A stretch of 64,000 nt of DNA, from the sequence record PZ452598.1; one strand, 5' to 3'. The notes under the pieces are model-generated. The model made no database searches. It was not told the origin of the DNA and saw nothing but the letters and a program-made list of their open reading frames with translations. The translations under genes and the position numbers were made by a program. The stretch comes from a phage. Shown here one piece after another: positions 1,413 through 59,643 of the stretch. Each line of letters starts with the position of its first letter. Positions within the stretch are counted from its first letter, which is position 1.

Positions 1413-2737
1413 TTGATTTCCTCTAAATCTTTGGTGTATTCAGTAACTACATCAGTAGTTTTCCAATATTCGTTTTCTTCTTTTTTAGCTTTAGCTTCTT
1501 CAGCAAGTTTCTTTGCTTCATCGGAAGTCATATGAAAAATATTCATTCCAACTAGTTTATCAACATAAGAAGAATACATATCGATTTTCGAAAGTTCTTC
1601 GGTCAGTTCTTTACGAGTTTTACCCTGTACAACAATTTCACCTGAAATTACTTTCTTAATGAAATGTGCTTTGGCAAAGGCTAAACGAAAAGCTGACTCA
1701 GTTTCTTTAATTTTGTTATCAATTCGTTTTTGGACATAAGTTTTACGAACTTCAACAAAGTCTTTAATTAAATCAACTACGTTATCGTAAACTTGCAGCT
1801 TTCCTTTCTCATTAATAACCGTAATATTCTGGGAACGACGCTCAATCAGTCCGAAGTCTTTCATAATTTTTGCATGGCGTTCTTCTTCGTTATCGCTCAA
1901 AGAATATTCTTTGCGGAATTTAACTTTGAAGCCAAAACCATGCTCACCACAAGCATCATCCCATGTAATGAAGCCTTTATCTTCAAGTGGGTCTAAGATT
2001 TTACTCACATAAGTTTCACGATCATACTTATACGGAATCTCAGTGATATGCATTTGAGTTCGTGAAGTAAACTTATATGTTCCACGAATTTCATATTGCC
2101 CATCAATTTCAACGACTTCACCACGAAATTCTGGGAATTCTACTTTCGGTTTAGTTACTTTCTTTCCTTGAAGAGCTTGCAGTACAGCTTTCTTGACAGA
2201 AGAAACACTATGAGGAAGAATGTAAGTTGCATAACCAGTTGCAATACCGGAAACGCCATTAAGAAGAACAGTAGGAATAATAGGCAAATAGAAAGCAGGC
2301 GGAATGTGTTCTTTATCTTGATGTACCGGAGCATATTCAGTATCTTTATATACGTTATAGAAATTTTTACTTACACGAGCAAAAATATAACGACTTGCCG
2401 CTGCCTTTTGGACAGTACGAGAACCAAAGTTTCCTTGACCATCTAACAGAGGAAAGTTATTATTCCAAGTATTAGCCATCAAAGCACCTGCGTCTTGTGC
2501 AGAGTTTTCACCATGATGATATCCAAGGTCCGCTACACCACCTGCAATAGAAGCGAGTTTGTGAAACTTATCTTTATTTCCTCGTGCCAAATCAAGAGCT
2601 CGAGCAATAACAAATCGTTGAACTGGCTTAAATCCATCAATCATATTTGGGATAGCACGATTTTCAACCGTGTACATAGCATAAGCCAATGCTTCATTAT
2701 CAATGATACTTTTTAAATCGCGATTATTCAGTTGCAT
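1409..2737 (-). CDS. 52: DNA topoisomerase II medium subunit gp52 (GyrA-like breakage-reunion subunit, 442 aa)
   Basis: 442-aa ORF; length and sequence match recalled T4 gp52; partners with gp39/gp60 elsewhere in window. Confidence 0.9.
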   Translation of the reverse strand: MQLNNRDLKSIIDNEALAYAMYTVENRAIPNMIDGFKPVQRFVIARALDLARGNKDKFHKLASIAGGVADLGYHHGENSAQDAGALMANTWNNNFPLLDGQGNFGSRTVQKAAASRYIFARVSKNFYNVYKDTEYAPVHQDKEHIPPAFYLPIIPTVLLNGVSGIATGYATYILPHSVSSVKKAVLQALQGKKVTKPKVEFPEFRGEVVEIDGQYEIRGTYKFTSRTQMHITEIPYKYDRETYVSKILDPLEDKGFITWDDACGEHGFGFKVKFRKEYSLSDNEEERHAKIMKDFGLIERRSQNITVINEKGKLQVYDNVVDLIKDFVEVRKTYVQKRIDNKIKETESAFRLAFAKAHFIKKVISGEIVVQGKTRKELTEELSKIDMYSSYVDKLVGMNIFHMTSDEAKKLAEEAKAKKEENEYWKTTDVVTEYTKDLEEIK

Positions 2738-20327: not shown

Positions 20328-20335
20328 TATTTATA
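20328..20335 (-). promoter_or_regulatory. late promoter TATAAATA for soc
   Basis: TATAAATA on minus strand about 30 nt upstream of soc ATG, overlapping segF stop. Confidence 0.6.
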
Positions 20336-40157: not shown

Positions 40158-41173
40158 TGTGTTGCCTCTACATATAGCTGATTTGCATATTGAATAAGTG
40201 CTTCACGGTCAGAATCAGTGATGTCTGGAATTGCATTAATATACTCTTCCATTAATGTCTGAAGCGATTGAACTTCAACTTCTTCACTGTCATCTGACTC
40301 GACAGAGTTATCAATCTTTGACACAACTCGTAATGAATGCACAACTTTTTCTAGTTCAGATTCGAACTTCGTCAGATTTTTGTCTACTTCAGTTACTATA
40401 ACACGTACTGATAGATTTGTAAAATCTTTATAGTCAATTTTTCCTTTAAATGGATAATGAATTCTACGATGCCAGGTAGTATTGTTTGGAATAAATTCCG
40501 TTCGTTCTGTTTCTGTATCAAACATCCAGAACCCACGAGGGTCATTCTCGTCACCTGCGGTTAGTGTCCATGGTGTCCCAATATATCTGACGTTTGCAGC
40601 CTCAGAAATAGTATGGAAGTGACCAGACCACACTTCTTTATAAGTCTTAAGGAAATCGGGTTCAAGACCATGAGATTTCATTCCTTTATAAAAATAAAAT
40701 CCATTCAGTTCCCAGTGACCAACACAAAAAGAAGCAGATGAAGTTTTGATATGCTCAAGAATTTCACCAGTATTTTCTTCGCACATCCAAGGAATCAAAT
40801 CAATCAAACACCCGTCAAAATCTACTGTAGTAGGCTTATCATACACTTTAACATTAGGATATTTAGCCAAAAGCTCAGTAGAAGCATTTGGATGCATTAC
40901 ATTTTTATAGTGGAGATCGTGATTTCCTACAATAGTGTGTAATGTAATTCCAGCATCATCAAGCGTTTGAACTATTTCACGGGCAAACTCCATAGTTTTA
41001 TGTGTGATCGCTTTTCGCACATCAAAAATATCACCGTATTGAATCCAGGTAGTAATTCCATTTTTCTTAGAATATTCTATCGCTTGCTTAATTCCATCAA
41101 TTTGAATACCGCGAATCCACTCATCATCAGCTTTAACGCCTAAATGCCAATCACCTAAATTTAAAATTTTCAT
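40154..41173 (-). CDS. 47: recombination nuclease subunit gp47 (Mre11/SbcD-like, 339 aa)
   Basis: Phosphoesterase motifs GDWHLG, GNHD. Confidence 0.9.
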   Translation of the reverse strand: MKILNLGDWHLGVKADDEWIRGIQIDGIKQAIEYSKKNGITTWIQYGDIFDVRKAITHKTMEFAREIVQTLDDAGITLHTIVGNHDLHYKNVMHPNASTELLAKYPNVKVYDKPTTVDFDGCLIDLIPWMCEENTGEILEHIKTSSASFCVGHWELNGFYFYKGMKSHGLEPDFLKTYKEVWSGHFHTISEAANVRYIGTPWTLTAGDENDPRGFWMFDTETERTEFIPNNTTWHRRIHYPFKGKIDYKDFTNLSVRVIVTEVDKNLTKFESELEKVVHSLRVVSKIDNSVESDDSEEVEVQSLQTLMEEYINAIPDITDSDREALIQYANQLYVEATQ

Positions 41174-44965: not shown

Positions 44966-45181
44966 TCAAGCATTCATCAGATTAGCCGCTCCAAGAGCTG
45001 CATCTAGTGAATCAAATTGGTCAACATATTCAATTAATTCGCCGTAATTAGCGTATAACCACCATTGGCTAAATTCATACTCAAGGATGAATCCATTTCC
45101 TTCAATTTGAGTTAAACCAATGCCATTTGTATTTACTTCATACCCAGCGAGACGTAAATCGTTAATAAGAGCTTCGTTCAT
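44966..45181 (-). CDS. hypothetical protein (71 aa)
   Basis: ORF track. Confidence 0.45.
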   Translation of the reverse strand: MNEALINDLRLAGYEVNTNGIGLTQIEGNGFILEYEFSQWWLYANYGELIEYVDQFDSLDAALGAANLMNA

Positions 45182-45510: not shown

Positions 45511-45562
45511 ACATTATCCTCAATTACGTTAAAATTTTATTATCCAAAAAGGGCCGAAGCCC

Positions 45563-45763
45563 TTAGCTAAACTTTTTGGCACCCTTCCAGCCTTCGTACA
45601 TCATTGCGACTGACAATGACAAAGCTCCTTCACATGCTGCATACTTATTATTCCAGAACCAATTTAGAAAAACTTCATCCTCAATACCGTTGTGTTTCAT
45701 GTTCTGGAAAAATTTGGCGCGTTCTTCAGCAATTCGCTGCGATAATTTAGATTCAGGATTCAT
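45563..45763 (-). CDS. hypothetical protein (66 aa)
   Basis: ORF track. Confidence 0.45.
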   Translation of the reverse strand: MNPESKLSQRIAEERAKFFQNMKHNGIEDEVFLNWFWNNKYAACEGALSLSVAMMYEGWKGAKKFS

Positions 45764-47171: not shown

Positions 47172-47642
47172 TTAATCATGTTTCCACACCCCATCGGTAT
47201 TTGACCAAAGTCGCTGATTATCTGATCCTCGCCACAGCTTTTTGGTCGGAAGATTTTTCTCATACTTCCCATCAATAATAACATCAACATATTTAAGCAT
47301 TTCTAGTTGTTTAATATCTTCAAACTTATATCCTGTCCACAACCAGATATCTTTCTCCGGAAATCTTGCTTTAACCCAAGAAACTAAATTTGAAATCTCT
47401 TCTCGGTTCTGTGGATAAAGTGGGTCACCGCCGGTTAAGGTAAGGCCTTGGATATACGATTTGCTTAAATGGGACGCAAGTTCTTTAACGGTATTCATAG
47501 TGAATAACTGTCCGTTACGAGCATTCCAAGTACTACGATTATAACAACCTTCGCATTTATGCAAACATCCAGTGACGAAGAGAACGACCCTACATCCAGG
47601 GCCGTTAACGAAATCGCATGGATAAATTCTATCATAATTCAT
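47172..47642 (-). CDS. nrdG: anaerobic ribonucleotide reductase activating enzyme NrdG (radical SAM, about 156 aa)
   Basis: CxxxCxxC cluster motif GCLHKCEGCYN; start taken at internal Met MNYDRIYP. Confidence 0.85.
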   Translation of the reverse strand: MNYDRIYPCDFVNGPGCRVVLFVTGCLHKCEGCYNRSTWNARNGQLFTMNTVKELASHLSKSYIQGLTLTGGDPLYPQNREEISNLVSWVKARFPEKDIWLWTGYKFEDIKQLEMLKYVDVIIDGKYEKNLPTKKLWRGSDNQRLWSNTDGVWKHD

Positions 47643-48264
47643 CTTTATATTTCCAAGTATATCCCTTATGAATAGATTGAATTCCTTTGCAACATTTATA
47701 AACAGCAGAATGAAAAAATCCTGCATTTCTTATTTCAGTTGCTCCAGTTAGTTCTATTGTATTTCCGTCTGGTGAATAGCCAATAACCGTTTTGGTGTTA
47801 AAGCGATTTCTAGAACTATTTTTGATATGCTCTTTATGATTAGTAGACAAAGTTCTTCCTGTTAGCCCATCAGATATCCTTTTTCCAAAATCATCAGGAA
47901 GAGTTACTTTAGACCTAGCTATGCTCATTAGCTTCTTAGTTTTATCGCTTCTTTTTGCGCCACGCTGATTTTCAAATTTCTTAGCTTTTGCATACGCGTA
48001 TTGTGAAGAAGTAACTTTTCTATGCTTACTATTACTCATTATCCAATATGCATCATACATCTTTCCACCATATATTTTAGCCAATAAATGGTGAGCAGTA
48101 TAGTGGGCCTTATAAGTTAAAAATACTAAGTTGTCTAAATCATCTGAACCACCCATACTTCTTGGAATTATATGATGAAGTTCATACCCGGCTTTAGTTT
48201 GACGGGGCTTAGATGGGTGTTCAGCAGAATTAACTAGATTTGAATAGATTCTGTCATAATTCAT
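47632..48264 (-). CDS. mobD: HNH homing endonuclease-like protein (210 aa) between nrdD and nrdG
   Basis: HNH signature HHIIPRSMGGSDD...NLVFL. Confidence 0.7.
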   Translation of the reverse strand: MNYDRIYSNLVNSAEHPSKPRQTKAGYELHHIIPRSMGGSDDLDNLVFLTYKAHYTAHHLLAKIYGGKMYDAYWIMSNSKHRKVTSSQYAYAKAKKFENQRGAKRSDKTKKLMSIARSKVTLPDDFGKRISDGLTGRTLSTNHKEHIKNSSRNRFNTKTVIGYSPDGNTIELTGATEIRNAGFFHSAVYKCCKGIQSIHKGYTWKYKDEL

Positions 48265-51111
48265 TGGTGCTTAACCCTATGCATGATTTCTTTATTTTTA
48301 CCGAGATTAAATCCGCGTTCGTTCGGATTTCCCAAATAACCACATGTTCTTCTTATGGTATTCATCTTTTTAGGATCAGTTTCTCCACAAATAGAACAAA
48401 CAAATCCGTTTTCAGTAGGAGTCATTTCATGGGTACTTCCACATGTAAAACATTTATCTACTGGCATATTAACACCAAAATAATCTAAATGCTGTGCAGC
48501 ATAATCCCACACGGCCTCAAGACCTTTTAAGTTATTTTTCATATCAGGAAGTTCAACATAAGAAATGTGACCACCTGTCGCAATGAAATGATATGGCGCT
48601 TCACGAGAAATCTTTTCAAACGGAGTAATATTTTCTTCTACTGAAACATGGAAACTGTTAGTGTACCAGCCTTTATCGGTAACATCTTTTACGCTTCCAT
48701 ATTTTTCTGTATCGAGTTTACAGAAGCGATAACACAGGTTTTCAGCAGGAGTCGAATATAAACTAAAAGCAAATCCGGTTCTTTCAGTCCACTGTTTAAG
48801 ATGAGCATTCATTTTAGTTAAAATTTCTCGTCCAATATCACGACCGACAAGAATATTCAATTCGTGAATACCAATGTATCCTAAAGACACTGAACTTCTA
48901 CCGTTTTTAAATAACTCAATTATGTCGTCATCAGGTTTAAGACGAACCCCGAATGCACCTTCTTGGTAAAGAATAGGAGCAACAGTAGCTTTAACTCCTT
49001 TTAAGGAACTAATTCTACACATCAAAGCTTCAAAACATAAATCCATTCGTTCATTAAATAGCTCAACAAATTTCTGTTCATTGAACTGTGTTCCAATATA
49101 AGAATCTAACGCGATGCGAGGAAGATTCAGTGTTACAACACCAAGATTATTGCGTCCATCAAGAATTTCATTGCCAGTCGAATCTTTCCATACGCTCAAG
49201 AAACTACGGCAACCCATCGGAGAAACAGGAACAGATGAACCAGTGATAGCTTTATTGTTCTTAGCTGAAATAATATCAGGATACATCCTTTTGCTTGCGC
49301 ACTCTAGAGCAAGCTGTTTAATATCATAGTTCGGATCGTCTTTATAAAGATTAACACCTTCTTCAACGAACATAACAAGCTTAGGGAAAATAGGAGTTAT
49401 CCCATCACGACCAAGACCTTTAATACGATTTTTCAGAATTGCTTTCTGAATCATTCGTTCAGTCCAGTCAGTTCCCGTACCAAATGTAATTGTTACAAAA
49501 GGAGTCTGTCCGTTTGAACTGAATAACGTGTTCACTTCATCAATGTGTTCAGTAGAGTTCGCTACTTCTCTACCCGTTTATATGAAACAATGTAATTTGG
49601 ATAATTGTCATCTAAACACAAATCTTTAATACGACTTGGGTGGAGTTTTAAATCTTTAGCAGCATCCACAAATGATTTATAGATATTGTCATTTATTTTA
49701 ACATATTCTGGGACGGGATGAATTGTTATTTTTATATCTATAACATTTGGATGATTACTAACCTGTTCTTCAGAGCATTTAAGAAATTTTGCAGCTGATT
49801 TAAAACTTCTAAATTTATTTCCGGATTTTAAAGCTATAGAAACAGTCTTTTTAGCCGTTCTACTACCAATATTATTTTTAACATGAGCTTCACTTCTACT
49901 ATTATTTTTATAATGCTCAATCAATTTCTCTCGTATCTTATCTTTATGTTTTAAAGATAAGATTTTACCTTTATGGGCATTACTAAGTTTTTGCTTATGT
50001 TCTTCTGAATCCGGATATTTGTTAAATTTATATCCACCTATAGATTTATTAAGAATAAATTCGTTATTAAAATATTTCCTAATAAGCATTTCTTCATGTT
50101 TAAGGGCCGATTCATAAGAATCAAAAACTTGAAGAATTATCCACTTAGCTTTATAATCTTTAAGCTTTTCTTTAACAAGCTTAGATGACGAATTGTATTC
50201 TTTCCAATTTGTATCTTTACCATATATAGTTTTGAATTTTTTAAAACCTATATAAAAAGACTTATCAGGAAATCTTACCATATAGGTAAATGCTACAGAA
50301 TTGGCAATTTTTAAGCTTTTTCTTAATTTCCATTTCATCGTTTCACCTCGTATTCATATTTATACGAGGATAAACAGCTGCATGTCACCATGCAGTTCAG
50401 ACTATATCTTCAACTCTTAGAGTTGTCTGCCGTTTCGGGTCGCTTGACCCTACTCCCTTACATTCATCAGGGATAGTCGTTGGGCATTTACAGCTACTGC
50501 TGATTTAGCAACGGATTGTCTCAGTGAGAGTTTCCCGTTTTAGGCAGATTTTACATGAGCTTGACTTACGTTAACTCATAAGCTTGGAATGCATCGTATA
50601 CGTCTTTTTCTGTTTTAGATTGAGCATAATTCAACGCATCAGCGATTTGCCATTTTTCTGCATCCTCAATATGTTTTGCATAGGTGCGTTTAACATAAGG
50701 AGAAAGTACTTTATCTACATTCGCAAAAGTCGTTCCGCCGTATTGGTGAGAAGCAACTTGCGCAGTAATTTGTGCCATAATTGCAGTAGCAACTCCAATT
50801 GATTTAGGAGTTTCAATCTGCGCATTACCAAGCTTAAATCCGTTTTCAAGCATTCCTTTTAAATCTACTAAACAGCAATTAGTAAATGGAAGAGCAGGGG
50901 AATAATCAATATCATGCACGTGAATAATTCCGCTTTCATGCGCTTTCATAATAAAAGACGGGACCATATTTTTGGCAATGTGTTTAGACACAATACCAGC
51001 CATAAGGTCCCGTTGAGTTGGAAAAACACGAGAATCTTTATTAGCATTCTCGTTTAAAAGGTCTTTATTAGTTTTATGAATTAATCCTTCAATTTCTTTT
51101 TCAATTGTCAT
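48261..51111 (-). CDS. nrdD: anaerobic ribonucleotide reductase NrdD, split by a group I intron (exon 1 about 50566..51111, exon 2 about 48261..49540)
   Basis: Two collinear ORFs (181 + 424 aa, about 605 aa total) separated by about 1 kb containing I-TevII; C-terminal glycyl-radical region in exon 2; splice sites not mapped exactly. Confidence 0.85.
49562..50338 (-). CDS. I-TevII: intron-encoded GIY-YIG homing endonuclease (258 aa)
   Basis: GIY-YIG-type N-terminus (FTYMVRF...FYIGFKKF); located inside nrdD intron. Confidence 0.85.
   Translation of the reverse strand: MKWKLRKSLKIANSVAFTYMVRFPDKSFYIGFKKFKTIYGKDTNWKEYNSSSKLVKEKLKDYKAKWIILQVFDSYESALKHEEMLIRKYFNNEFILNKSIGGYKFNKYPDSEEHKQKLSNAHKGKILSLKHKDKIREKLIEHYKNNSRSEAHVKNNIGSRTAKKTVSIALKSGNKFRSFKSAAKFLKCSEEQVSNHPNVIDIKITIHPVPEYVKINDNIYKSFVDAAKDLKLHPSRIKDLCLDDNYPNYIVSYKRVEK
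50357..50364 (-). promoter_or_regulatory. late promoter TATAAATA inside the intron, upstream of I-TevII
   Basis: TATAAATA on minus strand about 20 nt upstream of I-TevII ATG. Confidence 0.55.
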
Positions 51112-51581
51112 TTTAAACTCTTTCTAAGCTGCTTCTTGAATGAAGCTATTAATTGTGTTTTGGTGTCAGATTCATTATATTCAAATCCTCTTTGAAGCAT
51201 CTCGGCCATCATTTCCTCTTTTCCTAAACGAGAAAATTCCTTTGATTTATCTCCAACAAAGTTAGGGTGAATATTATTTTGGGTGTAATCGGATTTTAAA
51301 TAAGTAAGTAAATTTTCTAACCATTCAAGATAATCAACACCTTGTCCCTTTAAGCCAGAACGATTAAATTTATGCTTCATTTGACCTTCTGCAGCATTGC
51401 ATAGATTACAAAGCAATCCACGCACCTTTCCTGCTTTTGGTCCATTTAATTCATGGTCATGGTCGAGGTGATTAGCTTGAACATCAGGATTTAGTTCTCG
51501 TTGGCAAATTAAGCATTTACCGTTTTGTGCATCATAAAATTTCTGTTTTTCTTCTTTGTATAATTTGCCAGTCAATAACAT
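51108..51581 (-). CDS. 49: endonuclease VII gp49, Holliday junction resolvase (157 aa)
   Basis: Zinc-binding CLICQ...CNLCN and HNH-like HLDHDH core; 157 aa. Confidence 0.9.
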   Translation of the reverse strand: MLLTGKLYKEEKQKFYDAQNGKCLICQRELNPDVQANHLDHDHELNGPKAGKVRGLLCNLCNAAEGQMKHKFNRSGLKGQGVDYLEWLENLLTYLKSDYTQNNIHPNFVGDKSKEFSRLGKEEMMAEMLQRGFEYNESDTKTQLIASFKKQLRKSLK

Positions 51582-53662: not shown

Positions 53663-54585
53663 TTCAATACCTCAATAGCATTACGTAAACCATTTGCTTT
53701 GGCGGTTAAATCCTTAAGAACTTTAGTATGCTCTTCAATCTGTTTTTCAACTTCAATCAAACGGGTACTGAGATATTCGCGTTCTTCTTTCATAGTATCA
53801 TTCCCATGATTGGGCTTTGGCGTAGGTTTAAATTTATTAGGGTCCTTTAACTTAATAACAACTTTAGTTTCAAACAGTGAAAGACCATAATTCGTATTAT
53901 CATCAAAGGATTCAACTACGTCCATTTTAGACAATAACGTACGAAGATTATAAGTCAAAGAACGAATCGTTTTATTATGTTTATTAGCTTCACATGGTTT
54001 CATATATGGAAGATTTTTATATATTTCATGCGGAGCACAAACAATAATTAACAATTCAAATGGTCCATTCTGTGATGATGGAATGAATTTAGCCGTAACC
54101 CAATCTTTTACATTTACATTAATAGTACGATCATCGCCATGACAAAACAGTCTACGAGAATGCTTAAAAAGCATATTCACATTATTATTAAATTCGTGTG
54201 AAAACTCACTGGCAAATTTTTCTTTACTATCTTTAGAAAACCATTCTTCTAAATAAGTTCTTTTCACGTCGTTAATAATATTAAATGTAACAACATTATC
54301 ATTTGATACATTAGTCTCAATGTAGCTTGGATACATAAATTTTTTAACATTATTAACAGCTATCACAGAAGATAGTAATCGGGAACGTTTGAACCACTCG
54401 AGCAAAGAACCAAGAGAATGTGAATACGCATTTTGTGTATCTTTACAAATATGGTTTTCCCATCCAATATAGTCTAAAAAATCACGAAGAATATTATTGA
54501 TTACTTCTCTATGTCCTTTCTGATAATCACGATGTTTAGTAATAAGACTGTCAAAATAATCAATATAATGTTTACGAGTTTTCAT
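53659..54585 (-). CDS. hypothetical protein (308 aa), coiled-coil C-terminus; paralog family member 1
   Basis: ORF track; C-terminal heptad-like tail. Confidence 0.6.
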   Translation of the reverse strand: MKTRKHYIDYFDSLITKHRDYQKGHREVINNILRDFLDYIGWENHICKDTQNAYSHSLGSLLEWFKRSRLLSSVIAVNNVKKFMYPSYIETNVSNDNVVTFNIINDVKRTYLEEWFSKDSKEKFASEFSHEFNNNVNMLFKHSRRLFCHGDDRTINVNVKDWVTAKFIPSSQNGPFELLIIVCAPHEIYKNLPYMKPCEANKHNKTIRSLTYNLRTLLSKMDVVESFDDNTNYGLSLFETKVVIKLKDPNKFKPTPKPNHGNDTMKEEREYLSTRLIEVEKQIEEHTKVLKDLTAKANGLRNAIEVLK

Positions 54586-54639
54586 GTTCTTCTCACTTGG
54601 TTAATGATTTATACTCCGAGCCATCCTTGGCTTTAAATT

Positions 54640-55692
54640 TTACTTAATTAACTGCAAAGCTTGTTCTAGACGATCAAGACGATTAACGGATTCTTCCCAA
54701 ATCTTTTTAGCCTGCTCATATTCTTTCTGCGCTTTATTAGAAATTTCTAGAACTTCTTTATAAGCTTTTTCTAGTGCAATAACTTCTGGACGAATTTCTA
54801 TCGGTTCAGGTGAATCATCAAGACATTCCATTAGTTCCTCAAGGGTAGTTTCTTCTTTAGGAGTATTCACAATTTCATCACATTTTTGTTGGTAAATTTC
54901 TTTACTAGTAGGTGAATAAGCACATTTCACTTCACGAAGGCTAATTACGAGTTTATATCCTTCCCAACCGCATATATTCTTAAAAGGATATGTATGAATA
55001 TTTTCTACTGTTTCCATACAAAGTAATGCGGTCTCTAATTGACGAGTTATAGTGCTAGCAATTGAGAAAAATTTATTAATATTCTTTTGGTTAGTTTCTG
55101 GTGTAAAAAATCCATAATTCACAAAAATAGATACTTTATTTTTATCAAGTTCATATTCTTTTATGATAATCATATCAGAAGCCAAAGGATGAATTTGACG
55201 ATAATCGCCATAACATAATTTAGAAGCTGATTTTAGAATTTGCTTCTTGAAAAGTCTGAAATTACTAATCCAACGACGAGTAAAAATATTCTCAGGGTCT
55301 TCTTTATTATTGAGATGATAAGAATTAACATCACCGAACCAATTATATCCTACTACATCTTTAGTTCGTTTAATTTCTTTCCCAAAATTACCAAGAATAT
55401 CCCGATTAACCAAATATGAAAGAAGACGAGACTCTTTAAAGGTTTTCTTGATAACATCTTTATCTACACGGCTAGAAATTTTACGAATTTCATGAATAAA
55501 TTTAGTAGAAGAAACAATACTTGCATCAACACTATTGAGCCACTGATTGATAATAGAAAGAACGCTATTTTGGCCAAACATCGGTATAGCTTTATCATCA
55601 ATAACGCTATTGAATGATTTGATATATTCGTTACGAGTCATATTAATCTCCTCAGTAGAAAGTAAGAACATTATACCACATCCTTGTGGCAA
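54640..55692 (-). CDS. hypothetical protein (350 aa), paralog family member 2
   Basis: Shares FRLFKKQILKSASKL-type segment and coiled-coil tail with neighbours. Confidence 0.6.
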   Translation of the reverse strand: MPQGCGIMFLLSTEEINMTRNEYIKSFNSVIDDKAIPMFGQNSVLSIINQWLNSVDASIVSSTKFIHEIRKISSRVDKDVIKKTFKESRLLSYLVNRDILGNFGKEIKRTKDVVGYNWFGDVNSYHLNNKEDPENIFTRRWISNFRLFKKQILKSASKLCYGDYRQIHPLASDMIIIKEYELDKNKVSIFVNYGFFTPETNQKNINKFFSIASTITRQLETALLCMETVENIHTYPFKNICGWEGYKLVISLREVKCAYSPTSKEIYQQKCDEIVNTPKEETTLEELMECLDDSPEPIEIRPEVIALEKAYKEVLEISNKAQKEYEQAKKIWEESVNRLDRLEQALQLIK

Positions 55693-55702
55693 AGTAAACT
55701 AG
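55668..55702 (-). promoter_or_regulatory. early promoter (-35 GTTTAC 55695-55700, -10 TATAAT 55670-55675)
   Basis: Consensus early promoter on minus strand. Confidence 0.55.
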
Positions 55703-56721
55703 TTCAGTGCATTTAGTGCATTGTTCAGTTTAGAACGTTGCTTTGTCAGATTTTGAACCCTTGACTGAGCTTGTTCTAACGCCTTTTCAGCTTCTAGCAC
55801 TTCATTGGTCGCTTTAACTAATTCAGCATCTACTGCCTTAAGAGACTTCTCAATCGCATCCGCGTGCCATTTTTCAACAGGTTTAAGACTTGGATTTTCA
55901 ACAGGAAGAAAATTCACTTTATTGAATTTCCATGCATCTTTATTACCTGAGCTATACATCCAAAATTTAGGATCGTTTGATAAGTAATTAGATAAATTTA
56001 AGTTATCTTGCACTTCTTGCTTTTTCTCTTGTGTGACTTCGTCCTTTCTCAAAAATTCATATTTAAATGAAACGATCATATCAAGTTCATATGATGTTGT
56101 ATCTAACTTAAATCGTTCAAAACGAGGTAAAATCTTAGATTGAACAGCAGCAACAACATCCATATACTTAAATGCTTCTGTCAACTGCGATTTAAGGCAT
56201 TCGCAAATTGAAAGAGAATTTTTTGTATTAGGTTTAAAGCTAATTCGTGCAGTTCTATTATTTTCTTTTAACGGTCTTACTTCCATCTGAAGAGTATAAC
56301 CATCAAATTTCAGATTCTTTAAGTTAATGTCAGAGCCTTTTAATCGACTAGCAGTAGACAAAATTTGCTTTAATTGTCTACGGAACAGAGCAATAAATCT
56401 CCATTCAATACGATAATGATTTGGATTGAAAAATCCAGATGATAAATCGACCTTACTTTGACCAACGCCTTGAACAAATAGAGGATTTTTATAATCAATA
56501 GTTTTACAGAAATCGGTGAGCTGTTCACGAGCAGTCATTTGAGTAATATACCCTGCTTTACTAAAATTACGCACCCATTCACTGCTATTCGTATACTTAA
56601 AGTGATGAATAACACGATTAACTTTATCAGGGTCTAAATTATTTTCACACAAAAATGTCATAACATCACGAGTATAGCTGGCATTACGAACCATATCTTC
56701 AATTTGAGAACGAGTTTTCAT
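55699..56721 (-). CDS. hypothetical protein (340 aa), paralog family member 3
   Basis: Segment ALFRRQLKQILSTASRL and coiled-coil tail. Confidence 0.6.
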   Translation of the reverse strand: MKTRSQIEDMVRNASYTRDVMTFLCENNLDPDKVNRVIHHFKYTNSSEWVRNFSKAGYITQMTAREQLTDFCKTIDYKNPLFVQGVGQSKVDLSSGFFNPNHYRIEWRFIALFRRQLKQILSTASRLKGSDINLKNLKFDGYTLQMEVRPLKENNRTARISFKPNTKNSLSICECLKSQLTEAFKYMDVVAAVQSKILPRFERFKLDTTSYELDMIVSFKYEFLRKDEVTQEKKQEVQDNLNLSNYLSNDPKFWMYSSGNKDAWKFNKVNFLPVENPSLKPVEKWHADAIEKSLKAVDAELVKATNEVLEAEKALEQAQSRVQNLTKQRSKLNNALNALN

Positions 56722-56729
56722 GGTGTTCC

Positions 56730-57644
56730 TTAAGATTTAAGTAAATCAACAATTTTAATTAACTTTTCACGCTCAGATTTAGCTTTACTACTCAATCCAG
56801 ATAGTCTGAAAATTTCATCATCATATTGTTGAATAGAAATATTCAGCTCTTCAATTTGCTTATTAAAATAATCAATTTGTTCAGAATGTTTTTCGTTACT
56901 ACGAACTGGTACAGGTTTTGTAGGCAATTTAGTTGAACTGGATTCATTCGGGCGATAAATTAAAATGCAATTTGAACCAATCGGGCATTTAGCACCAGAT
57001 GAATATTCTAACGTTCCAGCTTCTTTTAAAACTTCAAAAGCTAAACAGAGATGATGCCCCATATTAACATAATCAGTAGAGCGAGCTCTGATGTAATAAT
57101 CATCTCCACGAGTGCTAAATTTAAAGCATTTAAGGTCTTCTGTATTATTAGTTTTAAAAATCATTTGTTTATCTAGACCTTTAGCCAATCGAGCACCTAA
57201 TGCTAATAATCGTCGTTGATTTTCCCACAAATCTGCGATCATTTGGTCAAATGATAATTTCGGCATTAGCCGACCATAAAGGTCATATCCTTTATTATAA
57301 TTGCGAAGGATTTCACTCGCATTAATACGAGACAACGCTCCAATTTTATTAAGGGCTTTCATAATACGATTAGATAAACTCATTCCAGACCCGTTTGTTC
57401 GCTGTAAATGTTTTTCTAATCCAAATCCAATATCAACTTTAAATTTATCTAAAATTTCAGCATGAACATCTCTGTCAATAACATTCAAATCCAAAGTTGG
57501 GTTAAATCTATGAAAAAATTTATCTGGCTCTCCACGACGTAAAACAGTCCATTCATTCATCATTTTTTTATTAACTAAAGATTTAATTACTGCGTTGACA
57601 TTATTAATTACTACTGACATATTTTCCTCACTCAATTTTACCAA
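56730..57644 (-). CDS. hypothetical protein (304 aa), paralog family member 4
   Basis: Segment LWENQRRLLALGARLAKG and coiled-coil tail. Confidence 0.6.
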   Translation of the reverse strand: MVKLSEENMSVVINNVNAVIKSLVNKKMMNEWTVLRRGEPDKFFHRFNPTLDLNVIDRDVHAEILDKFKVDIGFGLEKHLQRTNGSGMSLSNRIMKALNKIGALSRINASEILRNYNKGYDLYGRLMPKLSFDQMIADLWENQRRLLALGARLAKGLDKQMIFKTNNTEDLKCFKFSTRGDDYYIRARSTDYVNMGHHLCLAFEVLKEAGTLEYSSGAKCPIGSNCILIYRPNESSSTKLPTKPVPVRSNEKHSEQIDYFNKQIEELNISIQQYDDEIFRLSGLSSKAKSEREKLIKIVDLLKS

Positions 57645-58029
57645 TTACGCGGAATAAGATTGAACAGACTATATAAGTACCACATATAGATTGAACTAAT
57701 GCCATTCCAAAGAACCAAACAATATTATCAAACCATGTCTGTTTTACGTCGAAAGGACGTAAACTTACAGTAATATTATCACCTTTTTCTATTGAAGAAT
57801 ACATCTCTGGGGAAATATATTCACTAAATCTATAACCGTCTTTGAGTTCATATACAGCAATAAACGATAAACTAGACCCCTTTCCTTGAGTTCCTGTAAG
57901 GGTATTAACTACAGTAACATCATAATCTTTATAATGCATATAATCATTAATTGCGTAATAACCATATGCAATTACTATACATAAACAACATATCAATAAA
58001 TTCAATCTTTTAATTATCAACTGTTTCAT
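57628..58029 (-). CDS. membrane protein (133 aa)
   Basis: Two hydrophobic helices at N and C termini. Confidence 0.55.
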   Translation of the reverse strand: MKQLIIKRLNLLICCLCIVIAYGYYAINDYMHYKDYDVTVVNTLTGTQGKGSSLSFIAVYELKDGYRFSEYISPEMYSSIEKGDNITVSLRPFDVKQTWFDNIVWFFGMALVQSICGTYIVCSILFRVIGKIE

Positions 58030-58084
58030 AATAATCTCAATTAAAAGGGCTTAGAACCATTATACCATCCTTGGTATAAAGCGG

Positions 58085-58612
58085 TTATGCGAGTACCGTA
58101 TTTAACCGTTCTTCAAACTTCCGAAGAGTGTTCTGGCGTTCAGCTCTTTGCTTTTTGTAAGTTTCAATACGCTCTGAAATGAGAGTGTATCGTTCATTTA
58201 CTGATTCTTTCATAAAATCAGGAATTTCACGAGAAGCTTTAATCTCGTCAAATTTATCAATAACAGCTTGCTCTTCAGCAATTAAGTTATCATACATCAA
58301 AATATCTTTCTTGATGAACTCAATATCTTCTTGAGTTACACGAGATAATTTAGATGCTTTATCCTTTTTGTACTGTTCGTTAGTATCACGAGACCAGTGT
58401 AATGTACGATTTTTATTCGTATTCTTGTAAATTTCTACAATACCAATCTCATCGATAATAACGATCCAATTCCAACGGGATTTGTAAATTTGTCCTCCAT
58501 TAACAGTGATTTCACCTCCGATTGAGATGTCATTAAAGAACTTGCTTTGTGCTTCTGATTTAAATTTACCATCGTTGTAATTTACCAGGTTGAAAATATC
58601 TTTAGCGTTCAT
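58085..58612 (-). CDS. hypothetical protein (about 175 aa from Met at 58610-58612)
   Basis: ORF track 58085..58657; start moved to Met with GGAGGA SD downstream of promoter. Confidence 0.55.
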   Translation of the reverse strand: MNAKDIFNLVNYNDGKFKSEAQSKFFNDISIGGEITVNGGQIYKSRWNWIVIIDEIGIVEIYKNTNKNRTLHWSRDTNEQYKKDKASKLSRVTQEDIEFIKKDILMYDNLIAEEQAVIDKFDEIKASREIPDFMKESVNERYTLISERIETYKKQRAERQNTLRKFEERLNTVLA

Positions 58613-58637
58613 TTTGTGTTCCTCCGTAGTTGATAGT

Positions 58638-58672
58638 TGTATAGTACCACAGCTCAAACGGAAAGTAAACCG
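58638..58672 (-). promoter_or_regulatory. early promoter with conserved leader cassette (-35 GTTTAC 58665-58670)
   Basis: Same GTTTAC...GGTACTATACAACTATCAACTAC module as other copies. Confidence 0.5.
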
Positions 58673-58679
58673 GTAAAAT

Positions 58680-58704
58680 GAAAAAAAGTCTCCCGAAGGA
58701 GACT
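58680..58704 (-). terminator. intrinsic terminator
   Basis: AGUCUCC-UUCG-GGAGACU hairpin followed by UUUUUUU on minus-strand RNA. Confidence 0.65.
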
Positions 58705-58708
58705 AATG

Positions 58709-59095
58709 TTATTCGAGGGAAAGAAGATACTTACTCTGGTAAAACATTCCAGTAATATCATCTATCGTGCTTTGGATGGCTGGAGGCATTTCTTTATAAA
58801 TGCTGTTAGATTGGTCTAGTATGCGATCAATCATTTTAATTGTGTCGGTAGGAAGTTTACTGGCATCTGGAATTGAAGGCGTGTATTTTCGACCAGAATA
58901 CCCCAAATATTGCTCACCAAATTTATCAATCAAATCTGGCAACTCGGAAAAAATAAAATCGTATGCTTTGTGTCTAGCATAACTTTTAGTTTCAAAATGT
59001 GCAGAATGAAAATAAGCTTGTGCAGCCATTAATAAACCTAAGTATTCATCTGCCTTTGAAGGTTTTCCACTTTGTGAAAAGTCGCTGAATTTCAT
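58709..59095 (-). CDS. hypothetical protein (128 aa)
   Basis: ORF track. Confidence 0.55.
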   Translation of the reverse strand: MKFSDFSQSGKPSKADEYLGLLMAAQAYFHSAHFETKSYARHKAYDFIFSELPDLIDKFGEQYLGYSGRKYTPSIPDASKLPTDTIKMIDRILDQSNSIYKEMPPAIQSTIDDITGMFYQSKYLLSLE

Positions 59096-59635: not shown

Positions 59636-59643
59636 TATTTATA
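59636..59643 (-). promoter_or_regulatory. late promoter TATAAATA upstream of the rI gene block
   Basis: TATAAATA on minus strand about 25 nt upstream of ATG at 59608-59610. Confidence 0.55.

Follow-up and report, generated by a model that had tools for sequence, protein, structure and literature searches.

What interrupts nrdD in the window, that is, in the whole 64-kb stretch of phage DNA analyzed here, and how might the reading frame inside the interruption be expressed apart from the gene that carries it? Our analysis indicates, with a probability of about 97%, that the element is the self-splicing group I intron of T4 nrdD, which carries the homing endonuclease I-TevII behind a late promoter. 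The gene order in the window is that of the T4 reference NC_000866 (49, nrdD exon 1, intron with I-TevII, exon 2, mobC, nrdG), and the sequence is 99.94% identical to this reference across 7 kb and 100% identical to the T4 record OZ209023.1 across 3001 nt. The annotation of NC_000866 gives nrdD as a two-piece join and describes I-TevII as 'encoded by group 1A intron in nrdD; GIY-YIG family'. Window and reference carry the same element without any difference, and the length of the intron, the ORF of 258 aa, the late promoter and the hairpin at the ribosome-binding site (RBS) agree with the published description (PMC2988022). The T4 nrdD intron with I-TevII is already published and is textbook material. 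Formerly named sunY, nrdD encodes the anaerobic ribonucleotide reductase (RNR), and its intron and endonuclease have served since the late 1980s as a model for RNA that splices itself, for homing endonucleases and for the expression of 'genes within genes'. The value of the present check is one of confirmation: a reading made from the sequence alone had placed and understood the element rightly, and boundaries, fold and regulatory anatomy were recovered.

To map the intron boundaries, we aligned the region with nrdD of phage RB32, which lacks the intron; a comparison of this kind had been proposed by the first-pass annotation. This alignment contains a single gap of exactly 1033 nt, corresponding to window positions 50573..49541 on the minus strand, in line with the earlier statement that nrdD is split by about 1 kb. 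The limits given at that time, 49540-50568, were derived from ORFs and had the place roughly right, but the true ends at 49541 and 50573 lie 1 nt and 5 nt away from them. The principal features are as follows.

50574..51111, minus strand: nrdD exon 1, 538 nt, codons 1-179 and the first base of codon 180, from the RB32 alignment
49541..50573, minus strand: group I intron, 1033 nt, IA-type architecture, starting UAACGUAAG and ending ACAUUG
49562..50338, minus strand: gene for the homing endonuclease I-TevII, 258 aa, 3' of the catalytic core
49541, minus strand: omega-G, the terminal guanosine of the intron, with the 3' splice site right after it
48261..49540, minus strand: nrdD exon 2, 1280 nt with the stop codon counted, glycyl-radical domain

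Before splicing, the upstream nrdD ORF runs from 51111 to 50566 (minus strand, 181 aa) and the downstream ORF ends at 48261. Removal of the 1033 nt yields a NrdD of 605 aa that is identical to RB32 NrdD at 600 of 605 residues without gaps and that gives one Pfam NRDD match over residues 21-604 (E 2.6e-171) together with a Gly_radical match over residues 481-586. The intron splits a codon in phase 1 (GAG T/AT GAA), and the exon-1 frame continues for 5 nt into the intron, where it meets a TAA stop. Contrary to the earlier description of two in-frame pieces, the exons lie in different genomic frames until they are spliced, because the intron is 1033 nt long (3n+1; 1033 mod 3 = 1) and splits a codon. 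Given the stop codon within the intron and the frame shift between the exons, NrdD needs splicing, and the dependence of anaerobic RNR expression on splicing had been correctly foreseen. Exon 2 itself has neither an in-frame start nor a Shine-Dalgarno sequence; its AUG at 49540 opens a different frame that stops after two codons, and the GTG start listed for this ORF is mechanical.

A covariance-model search, likewise proposed by the first-pass annotation, gave a match to the Rfam group I model RF00028 far above threshold, at 105.3 bits (E 2.8e-26; gathering score 50), over 50609..50378 on the minus strand and along the full model (1-253). Using the Rfam alignment, RNAalifold and a pair count, we defined a core structure of 49 pairs that comprises P3-P9, P7.1/P7.2 and the P7 pseudoknot. 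Where this pseudoknot belongs, RNAalifold predicted a small helix (columns 213-223) that we regard as spurious, and P7 was set by hand before the pair count. The resulting elements, all on the minus strand, are listed below.

50378..50548: catalytic core, from the Rfam alignment, RNAalifold and the pair count
50548-43/50431-26: core helix P3
50539-34/50515-10: core helix P4
50529-26/50522-19: core helix P5
50502-499/50494-91: core helix P6a
50478-74/50404-00: core helix P7, pseudoknot
50473-69/50458-54: core helix P7.1, 4 pairs with compensatory change
50450-46/50441-37: core helix P7.2, arms located by hand in the sequence, compensatory change in 4 pairs
50425-20/50416-11: core helix P8
50395-89/50384-78: core helix P9
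50554..50580: P1, last 7 nt of exon 1, UAUGAGU (50580..50574), with the internal guide GCUCAUG (50560..50554)
49551..49574: 3'-terminal hairpin GGUAGAG/CUCUACU, from the minimum free energy (MFE) fold, enclosing the I-TevII stop codon (UAG 49564-62) and separated by 10 nt from the 3' splice site that follows

The covariation test drew on four related phage introns only, and among these 97.9% of the cells were paired and 22 of the 49 pairs showed a compensatory change; slid controls reached 34-41% paired with 1-3 compensatory pairs, and none of 500 shuffles was as good. P9 is uninformative in this test because it is invariant among the four introns. The hairpins at 50473-50454 and 50450-50437 fill the insertion between the P7 and P3' of the model, which is the hallmark of subgroup IA. 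The Rfam alignment puts the model P1 on exon sequence and leaves P2 nearly empty, so that neither P1 nor P2 draws support from the model itself. The P1 duplex listed above has 7 bp and a stability of -7.0 kcal/mol, also appears in the MFE fold of the local segment, and contains a U50574·G50560 wobble pair at the 5' splice site. The best duplex between exon 2 and the guide region, a candidate P10, is weak at just -1.8 kcal/mol. The earlier claim of a group I intron in nrdD is supported by the covariance model, the covariation, the U·G pair in P1, the terminal G and the exact restoration of the NrdD frame. As for the core that had been proposed at 50340..50560, the region is indeed structured and GC-richer (0.41-0.44 in 50300-50600 versus 0.24-0.30 in the endonuclease ORF), but the span covers two distinct elements, the catalytic core (from the P1 guide to P9, 50560..50378) and a regulatory hairpin at 50369..50346. 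Self-splicing is known from the literature, and the original GTP-labelling work is reportedly that of Gott, Shub and Belfort in 1986. The three T4 introns are treated as group I introns in published accounts (PMC1865063, PMC2988022).

A diverged relative of the intron is found in the Escherichia phages vB_Eco_F26, FN and ELT1 at the same nrdD insertion site, which was placed by BLAST anchoring of the exon flanks. This F26-type lineage, which is absent from the window, has an intron of 1045 nt as compared with 1033 nt in T4, about 66% nucleotide identity, the same architecture, and an endonuclease of the same length class that is 56% identical to I-TevII. The terminal guanosine is kept and the P1 guide sequence is invariant, and compensatory substitutions separate the two lineages in P3, P4, P6a, P7.1, P7.2, P8 and the terminal hairpin, the last of which reads GGCAUGA/UCAUGCU in the F26-type intron, with four positions changed on both sides. 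The F26-type intron scored 70.6 bits in a targeted Rfam run and was missed in the multi-locus run at the gathering threshold. Further group I introns occur at other nrdD positions in the phages TH18 and phi92 and in Vibrio phage F92; their cores are homologous to that of T4 and 70-77% identical over ~190 nt. Those of TH18 and phi92 scored 70-80 bits, and Vibrio phage F92 gave nothing in the multi-locus Rfam run at the gathering threshold. These inserts lie at T4-equivalent residues ~125, ~282-290 and ~445, whereas the T4 intron lies at 179/180, and they also differ in content: the TH18 and phi92 inserts have no annotated ORF and the F92 inserts have annotated HNH endonucleases, in contrast to the GIY-YIG gene of T4. 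The T4 td intron with I-TevI occupies another host gene and insertion site, and the I-TevI and I-TevII proteins can hardly be aligned, with 16% identity across 69 columns and an hhalign probability of 15%. Unlike in the td intron, the ORF of the nrdD intron follows P9, and for this reason the whole P3-P9 core lies 5' of the ORF.

The first-pass annotation had also placed a late promoter inside the intron just upstream of the 258-aa ORF, and both the ORF (50338..49562, minus strand) and the promoter element are found where they were expected. It had missed the RBS-sequestering hairpin, the translational half of the control.

50357..50364, minus strand: T4 late-promoter element TATAAATA, with the ATG of I-TevII 18 nt downstream
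50346..50369, minus strand: RBS-sequestering hairpin, CCUCGUAU (50369-62) with AUACGAGG (50353-46), 8-bp stem, Shine-Dalgarno sequence GAGG at 50349-46

The promoter element extends from the 5' arm of the hairpin into its loop, and the hairpin has a free energy of -17.4 kcal/mol (z = -4.4; none of 200 shuffles equally stable). When RNAs beginning at 50352-50349, within the 3' arm, were folded, GAGG was unpaired. A late promoter inside a hairpin that masks the RBS is a mechanism described in a review (PMC2988022), which also reports that the late promoters were located by primer extension (Gott et al. 1988) and that late endonuclease transcripts lie within the early or middle transcription units to which td, nrdD and nrdB belong; the mapping of the late transcripts is thus taken from the literature. 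Both the promoter element and the placement of the hairpin fit I-TevII into the class of soc, e and I-TevI, in which a late promoter is combined with an RBS-masking hairpin. Together with these publications, the position of TATAAATA in the hairpin supports the earlier view that the endonuclease is timed independently of its host gene.

It could be argued that the intron is real and TATAAATA merely a chance A+T-rich match, the endonuclease being made from the nrdD pre-mRNA with early or middle timing, since an 8-mer of A and T could arise by chance in an ORF region of such low GC content. We consider this very improbable. The window holds 3 perfect copies of the motif where shuffles predict 11.2, so that it is depleted rather than frequent, and all three copies are on the coding strand just upstream of the late-expressed ORFs soc, I-TevII and rI.1/rI. 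Moreover, this copy sits within a stable hairpin that occludes the Shine-Dalgarno sequence on any longer RNA, and motif and hairpin both survive in the F26-type intron despite its divergence, there with a C->U (G·U) change in the stem and a longer loop. Primer-extension mapping likewise speaks against a chance match (PMC2988022).

At the late promoter of the I-TevII gene lies a further sequence of potential regulatory relevance.

50337..50358, minus strand: homing-site-like sequence TATGAATACGAGGTGAA-ACGAT, aligned locally with TATGAGTATGAAGTGAACACGTT, a putative I-TevII operator

This 22-nt stretch overlaps the 3' end of the promoter, the transcription start, the Shine-Dalgarno sequence and the ATG. 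It matches the homing site in 18 of 23 alignment columns, a score that 12 of 500 shuffles also reached, and in a 277-column alignment of the 5' 260 nt of the intron the longest run invariant between T4 and F26 (19 nt) falls within it. The 2010 review notes a site near I-TevII that resembles the nrdD homing site and regards autorepression as likely; at an operator, such autorepression is demonstrated for I-TevI and only proposed for I-TevII (PMC2988022). We infer only tentatively that 50358..50337 is a true operator and that I-TevII represses its own gene as I-TevI does, and on balance we lean somewhat against it. The likeness could instead date from the time when the endonuclease gene first invaded an intron that had no ORF, or the stretch could simply reflect conservation of the hairpin arm and the RBS.

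The assignment of I-TevII to the GIY-YIG class, as made in the first-pass annotation, is supported by motif residues, by a predicted fold and by the literature, with a sequence score that remains below threshold: the best Pfam match, PF19835 (SegE_GIY-YIG), scores 21.6 bits (E 2.8e-4) where the cut-off is 25, and PF01541 gave no match in the Pfam search. Among 55 homologues detected by profile, 5 reach PF19835 and 5 reach PF01541, and the homologue P0002, which is 56% identical to I-TevII, has a precomputed PF19835 match. The catalytic motif residues Y19, Y29, G31, E82 and N97 are invariant in all 55. An hhalign comparison with I-TevI, of low probability (15%, E 0.0018), equates Y19/Y29/G31/E82 with Y6/Y17/G19/E75; in the same alignment K26-R27-W28 of I-TevI, which include the canonical GIY-YIG arginine R27, fall in a gap, and the 55 homologues have no invariant Arg. 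PDB sequence searches with I-TevII alone and with the 55-sequence profile found nothing. In the predicted structure, the N-terminal domain adopts a GIY-YIG alpha/beta fold with moderate confidence (pLDDT 65.5).

The weakness of these model matches might be taken to mean that the element is a decayed, immobile relic in which a splicing-competent intron houses an inactive endonuclease, as documented in the T4 genome itself for the nrdB intron and I-TevIII (PMC2988022, PMC1865063). We give this idea almost no weight. The ORF is full length and keeps the motif residues that are invariant among its homologues, I-TevII is 99% identical in other phages, and the full-length, 56%-identical counterpart in the F26-type intron implies purifying selection. 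Activity and mobility are matters of published record: I-TevII is listed as active (PMC2988022, Table 1), and the nrdD intron homes at high efficiency, with a double-strand break made at a distance from the insertion site (PMC1865063). Of about 866 records of related phages, only 62-69 have an insert at the nrdD site, and such a patchy distribution at one identical site among close relatives may be read as an indirect sign of mobility.

For T4, the ligated exon junction in RNA and a single NrdD polypeptide of ~68 kDa are on record in the older literature. It is scarcely credible that the insert is a free-standing endonuclease cassette and nrdD a gene split without splicing into two separately translated, reassembling polypeptides, as might be suggested by the split RNR genes of T4-like phages (mobE splits nrdA in phage Aeh1; PMC2988022) and by the two separate NrdD CDSs listed in several automated annotations of relatives, given that the flanking RNA is a 105-bit group I match with strong covariation, that exon 2 has no start signals of its own, and that taking out exactly 1033 nt leaves a gap-free 605-aa protein, for which the T4 reference annotates a join.

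Nothing in these results contradicts the reading of the element as a group I intron with I-TevII, and the mechanism can be described as follows, with self-splicing, late transcription, endonuclease activity and mobility taken from published work. Within an early/middle unit, nrdD is transcribed from right to left in the window. A group I ribozyme with P1, P3-P9 and the IA-type extra helices P7.1/P7.2 forms from the first ~200 nt of the intron, and the last ~35 nt contribute the 3'-terminal hairpin and the omega-G. Splicing would then link GAG-U to AU-GAA and allow synthesis of the 605-aa anaerobic ribonucleotide reductase, and on unspliced RNA translation would halt two codons into the intron. 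The endonuclease gene, flanked by the core on one side and the 3' terminal element on the other, would be subject to two-fold control: on the long pre-mRNA the 8-bp hairpin would conceal its Shine-Dalgarno sequence, and late in infection transcription would proceed from TATAAATA within the hairpin, with its start in the 3' arm. Because the late RNA would lack the 5' arm, its ribosome site would be free. I-TevII made in this way would cleave nrdD of co-infecting phages that lack the intron, and repair of the break would copy the intron in.

Two aspects may be of interest to specialists: the existence of a diverged intron/endonuclease lineage at the identical nrdD site that has kept the promoter-in-hairpin design, and the finding that, within the 5' part of the intron, the proposed I-TevII operator coincides with the stretch that is conserved best. 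Outside the element, the window differs from NC_000866 by small indels at reference positions 40247, 40828-40840 and 42406 and by a 4.8-kb deletion in the nrdC.9-mobD.5 region.

We found that the element interrupting nrdD is the T4 nrdD (sunY) intron with I-TevII itself, rather than a relative. A 3-kb part of the window (48200-51200) is 100% identical to the Escherichia phage T4 record OZ209023.1, and a 7-kb stretch shows 99.94% identity to the T4 reference NC_000866, with four gap openings as the sole differences. The order annotated in NC_000866 is gene 49, nrdD (a two-piece join), I-TevII, mobC and nrdG, and I-TevII is labelled there as 'DNA endonuclease encoded by group 1A intron in nrdD; GIY-YIG family'. 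The intron and its endonuclease are already known, and nothing in this region is new. Each part of the first-pass interpretation is supported, with the small corrections set out below. The small indels relative to NC_000866 lie at window positions 44972, 45553..45565 and 47132 (reference 40247, a compensating pair at about 40828-40840 within gene 55.3, and 42406 between 55.8 and nrdG) and may reflect strain differences or corrected sequencing errors. In addition, about 4.84 kb of the reference (53926..58741), holding part of nrdC.9, nrdC.10, nrdC.11, mobD and mobD.1-mobD.5, is missing from the window, and a 21-nt sequence common to both flanks marks the junction at 58632..58652. Since no record among a 50,697-phage collection spans this junction, the gap looks like a T4 deletion variant absent from that collection.

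The insert is absent from most relatives. Comparison with an intron-less allele, one of the checks proposed in the first-pass annotation, gave a single gap of exactly 1033 nt when nrdD of phage RB32 was aligned with the T4 gene, and this gap sets the limits of the intron and exons listed here with the ORFs of the region, all of which lie on the minus strand.

51111..50574 (-), nrdD exon 1 (RB32 alignment)
50573..49541 (-), group I intron, 1033 nt (RB32 alignment)
49540..48261 (-), nrdD exon 2 (RB32 alignment)
51111..50566 (-), upstream nrdD ORF, 181 aa, product starting MTIEKEIEGL
50338..49562 (-), endonuclease ORF, 258 aa (ORF list)
end at 48261 (-), downstream long ORF, whose listed GTG start is merely the first mechanical start codon

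The T4 junctions read ...GCTTATGAGT / TAACGTAAG...ACACATTG / ATGAAGTGAAC, and the uninterrupted RB32 sequence reads ...GCTTATGAAT ATGAAGTAAAT. Joining the exons yields 1818 nt encoding a 605-aa protein that matches RB32 NrdD without gaps at 600 of 605 residues and contains a single unbroken Pfam NRDD match (residues 21-604, E 2.6e-171) as well as the glycyl-radical domain. The junction splits a codon (GAG T/AT GAA; protein ...QAYE-Y-EVNTLF...), and the exon-1 reading frame continues for 5 nt of intron sequence up to a TAA stop. Two small corrections to the first-pass annotation follow: its two pieces of nrdD are real but not in frame, because 1033 = 3n+1 places them in different genomic frames, and its intron (49540..50568) was correctly located apart from limits misplaced by 1 nt and 5 nt. 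On the other side of exon 1, gene 49 (endonuclease VII; 51108..51581, -), for which the reference annotates a full-length and an internal-start product, overlaps the nrdD start codon by 4 nt. Between nrdD and nrdG lies mobC (47632..48264, -), a free-standing HNH homing endonuclease gene (Pfam HNH, E 3.2e-6) whose coding sequence extends a few bases into each of its neighbours; two unrelated mobile endonuclease genes, mobC and the intron's I-TevII, therefore sit at the nrdD locus.

The proposed group I intron with a structured, GC-richer core is borne out by a covariance-model search, in which RF00028 (group I catalytic intron) was the sole above-threshold Rfam match in the whole window (50609..50378, 105.3 bits against a gathering score of 50, E 2.8e-26, full model covered), and by a G+C content of 0.41-0.44 at 50300-50600 versus 0.24-0.30 over the 258-aa ORF. 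The Rfam alignment assigns P3, P4, P5, P6, P8 and P9, and its 40-nt insertion between P7 and P3' folds into two hairpins, P7.1 and P7.2, a hallmark of subgroup IA. The model's P1 falls on exon sequence and its P2 is almost empty; in the actual P1 (7 bp, -7.0 kcal/mol), UAUGAGU at the 3' end of exon 1 pairs with the guide GCUCAUG (intron positions 14-20), and the splice-site pair is U·G. The last intron base is G, and P10 is weak (best duplex found, -1.8 kcal/mol). We examined the fold across the T4 intron, the F26-type intron at the same site (a diverged lineage found in phages vB_Eco_F26, FN and ELT1; 70.6 bits), and the introns of TH18 (79.8 bits) and phi92 (70.6 bits) at other nrdD sites. 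A specified 49-pair structure comprising P3, P4, P5, P6a, P7 (pseudoknot), P7.1, P7.2, P8 and P9 gave standard pairs in 97.9% of cells and both-sided changes in 22 pairs, values reached by none of 500 shuffles; shifting the 3' partners by 1-3 columns left 34-41% of cells paired and 1-3 compensatory pairs. P9 is invariant and uninformative either way. Moreover, a 3'-terminal hairpin surrounding the I-TevII stop codon (GGUAGAG/CUCUACU, 49574..49551) co-varies, reading GGCAUGA/UCAUGCU in the F26 type.

The late promoter that had been placed inside the intron is present as TATAAATA at 50364..50357, 18 nt 5' of the I-TevII ATG. This motif is depleted across the early-region 64-kb window (3 copies versus 11.2 ± 2.9 in shuffles), and the remaining two perfect copies, 20328..20335 (-) and 59636..59643 (-), directly precede soc and rI.1/rI on their coding strand; rI.1/rI is expressed late. 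The promoter lies within a hairpin, CCUCGUAU-AAAUAUGA-AUACGAGG, whose 3' arm holds the Shine-Dalgarno sequence GAGG 7 nt from the ATG and whose local fold (-17.4 kcal/mol, z = -4.4) was equalled in stability by 0 of 200 shuffles. Late transcription in T4 begins about 6-7 nt past the TATAAATA box; an RNA begun there has its 5' end within the 3' arm, and its fold leaves the Shine-Dalgarno sequence unpaired. This translational lock, left out of the first-pass annotation, makes the timing of the endonuclease effective. That the endonuclease is timed independently of nrdD is right, because primer extension mapped the late promoters (Gott et al. 1988, as given in PMC2988022) and the endonuclease transcripts are embedded within the early/middle units of td, nrdD and nrdB (PMC2988022). 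The same review counts soc among the late genes.

Positions 50358..50337 resemble the homing site at the exon junction, with 18 identities in 23 columns, a score attained by 12 of 500 shuffles. The resemblance is also pointed out in PMC2988022, where repression by I-TevII of its own late promoter is put forward as a hypothesis. Alternatively, this similarity may be a trace of the endonuclease gene invading an ORF-less intron, an event that Loizos et al. 1994, whose title appears among the references of that review, reportedly described.

Assignment of I-TevII to the GIY-YIG class is supported by motif, predicted fold and literature (Table 1 of PMC2988022), although no sequence match reaches a curated threshold: a Pfam scan of the 258-aa product gave only sub-threshold matches to SegE_GIY-YIG (21.6 bits, cut-off 25), NUMOD1 (22.5, cut-off 22.8) and NUMOD3 (18.8, cut-off 20.4). 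Its close relatives in a 5.8-billion-protein index are few and form three clusters (99%, 56% and 31% identity), and a profile search of 1.84 billion representatives returned 8944 relatives at E ≤ 0.001. In a 55-member alignment drawn from these, Y19, Y29, G31, Y48, S51, E82 and N97 are invariant, and Pfam identifies NUMOD3 in 41, SegE_GIY-YIG in 5 and GIY-YIG in 5 members. Profile-sequence comparison with I-TevI, the td-intron endonuclease (sequence from the T4 reference), pairs Y19/Y29/G31/E82 with Y6/Y17/G19/E75 at a probability of only 15%, and in that alignment the canonical Arg27 of I-TevI stands opposite a gap.

Most of the 3-kb query, insert included, is found in only 62 of about 866 phage records matching the nrdD region. 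The intron search matched 582 records, of which 69 contain 80% or more of the intron and 25 are at least 99% identical to T4's. The full-length introns listed fall into a T4 type (100% identity) and an F26 type (about 66%). Patchy presence at one identical site in near-identical genomes is what a homing element is expected to leave; the nrdD intron is reported to home efficiently, and I-TevII to cut both strands at a distance from the insertion site (PMC2988022, PMC1865063). The F26-type intron (1045 nt; 1496..2540 of the vB_Eco_F26 locus, L004) occupies exactly T4's insertion site, has about 66% overall identity (84% in the core), and encodes an endonuclease 56% identical to I-TevII. It keeps TATAAATA and the hairpin stem, in which a single C→U substitution creates a G·U pair, and its hairpin loop is longer; TATGAATACGAGGTGAAAC is the longest run invariant between the two types in a 277-column alignment of the intron 5' part. 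Its own records label it only as 'hypothetical protein' or split nrdD CDSs.

Between gene 49 and nrdD, Yersinia phage fPS-2 (L003 590..1411) and phage vB_Eco_F26 (L004 146..967) have an extra gene for a 273-aa homing endonuclease. Their NrdD is only 84% identical to that of T4 in exon 1 and 96-97% in exon 2, a difference that suggests endonuclease-associated divergence or co-conversion of the nrdD 5' end. The unrelated phages F92 (a Vibrio phage), TH18 and phi92 have nrdD group I introns with homologous cores at T4-equivalent residues ~125, ~282-290 and ~445, some with an annotated HNH endonuclease and others without an annotated ORF; nrdD has thus been targeted repeatedly, at no fewer than four positions.
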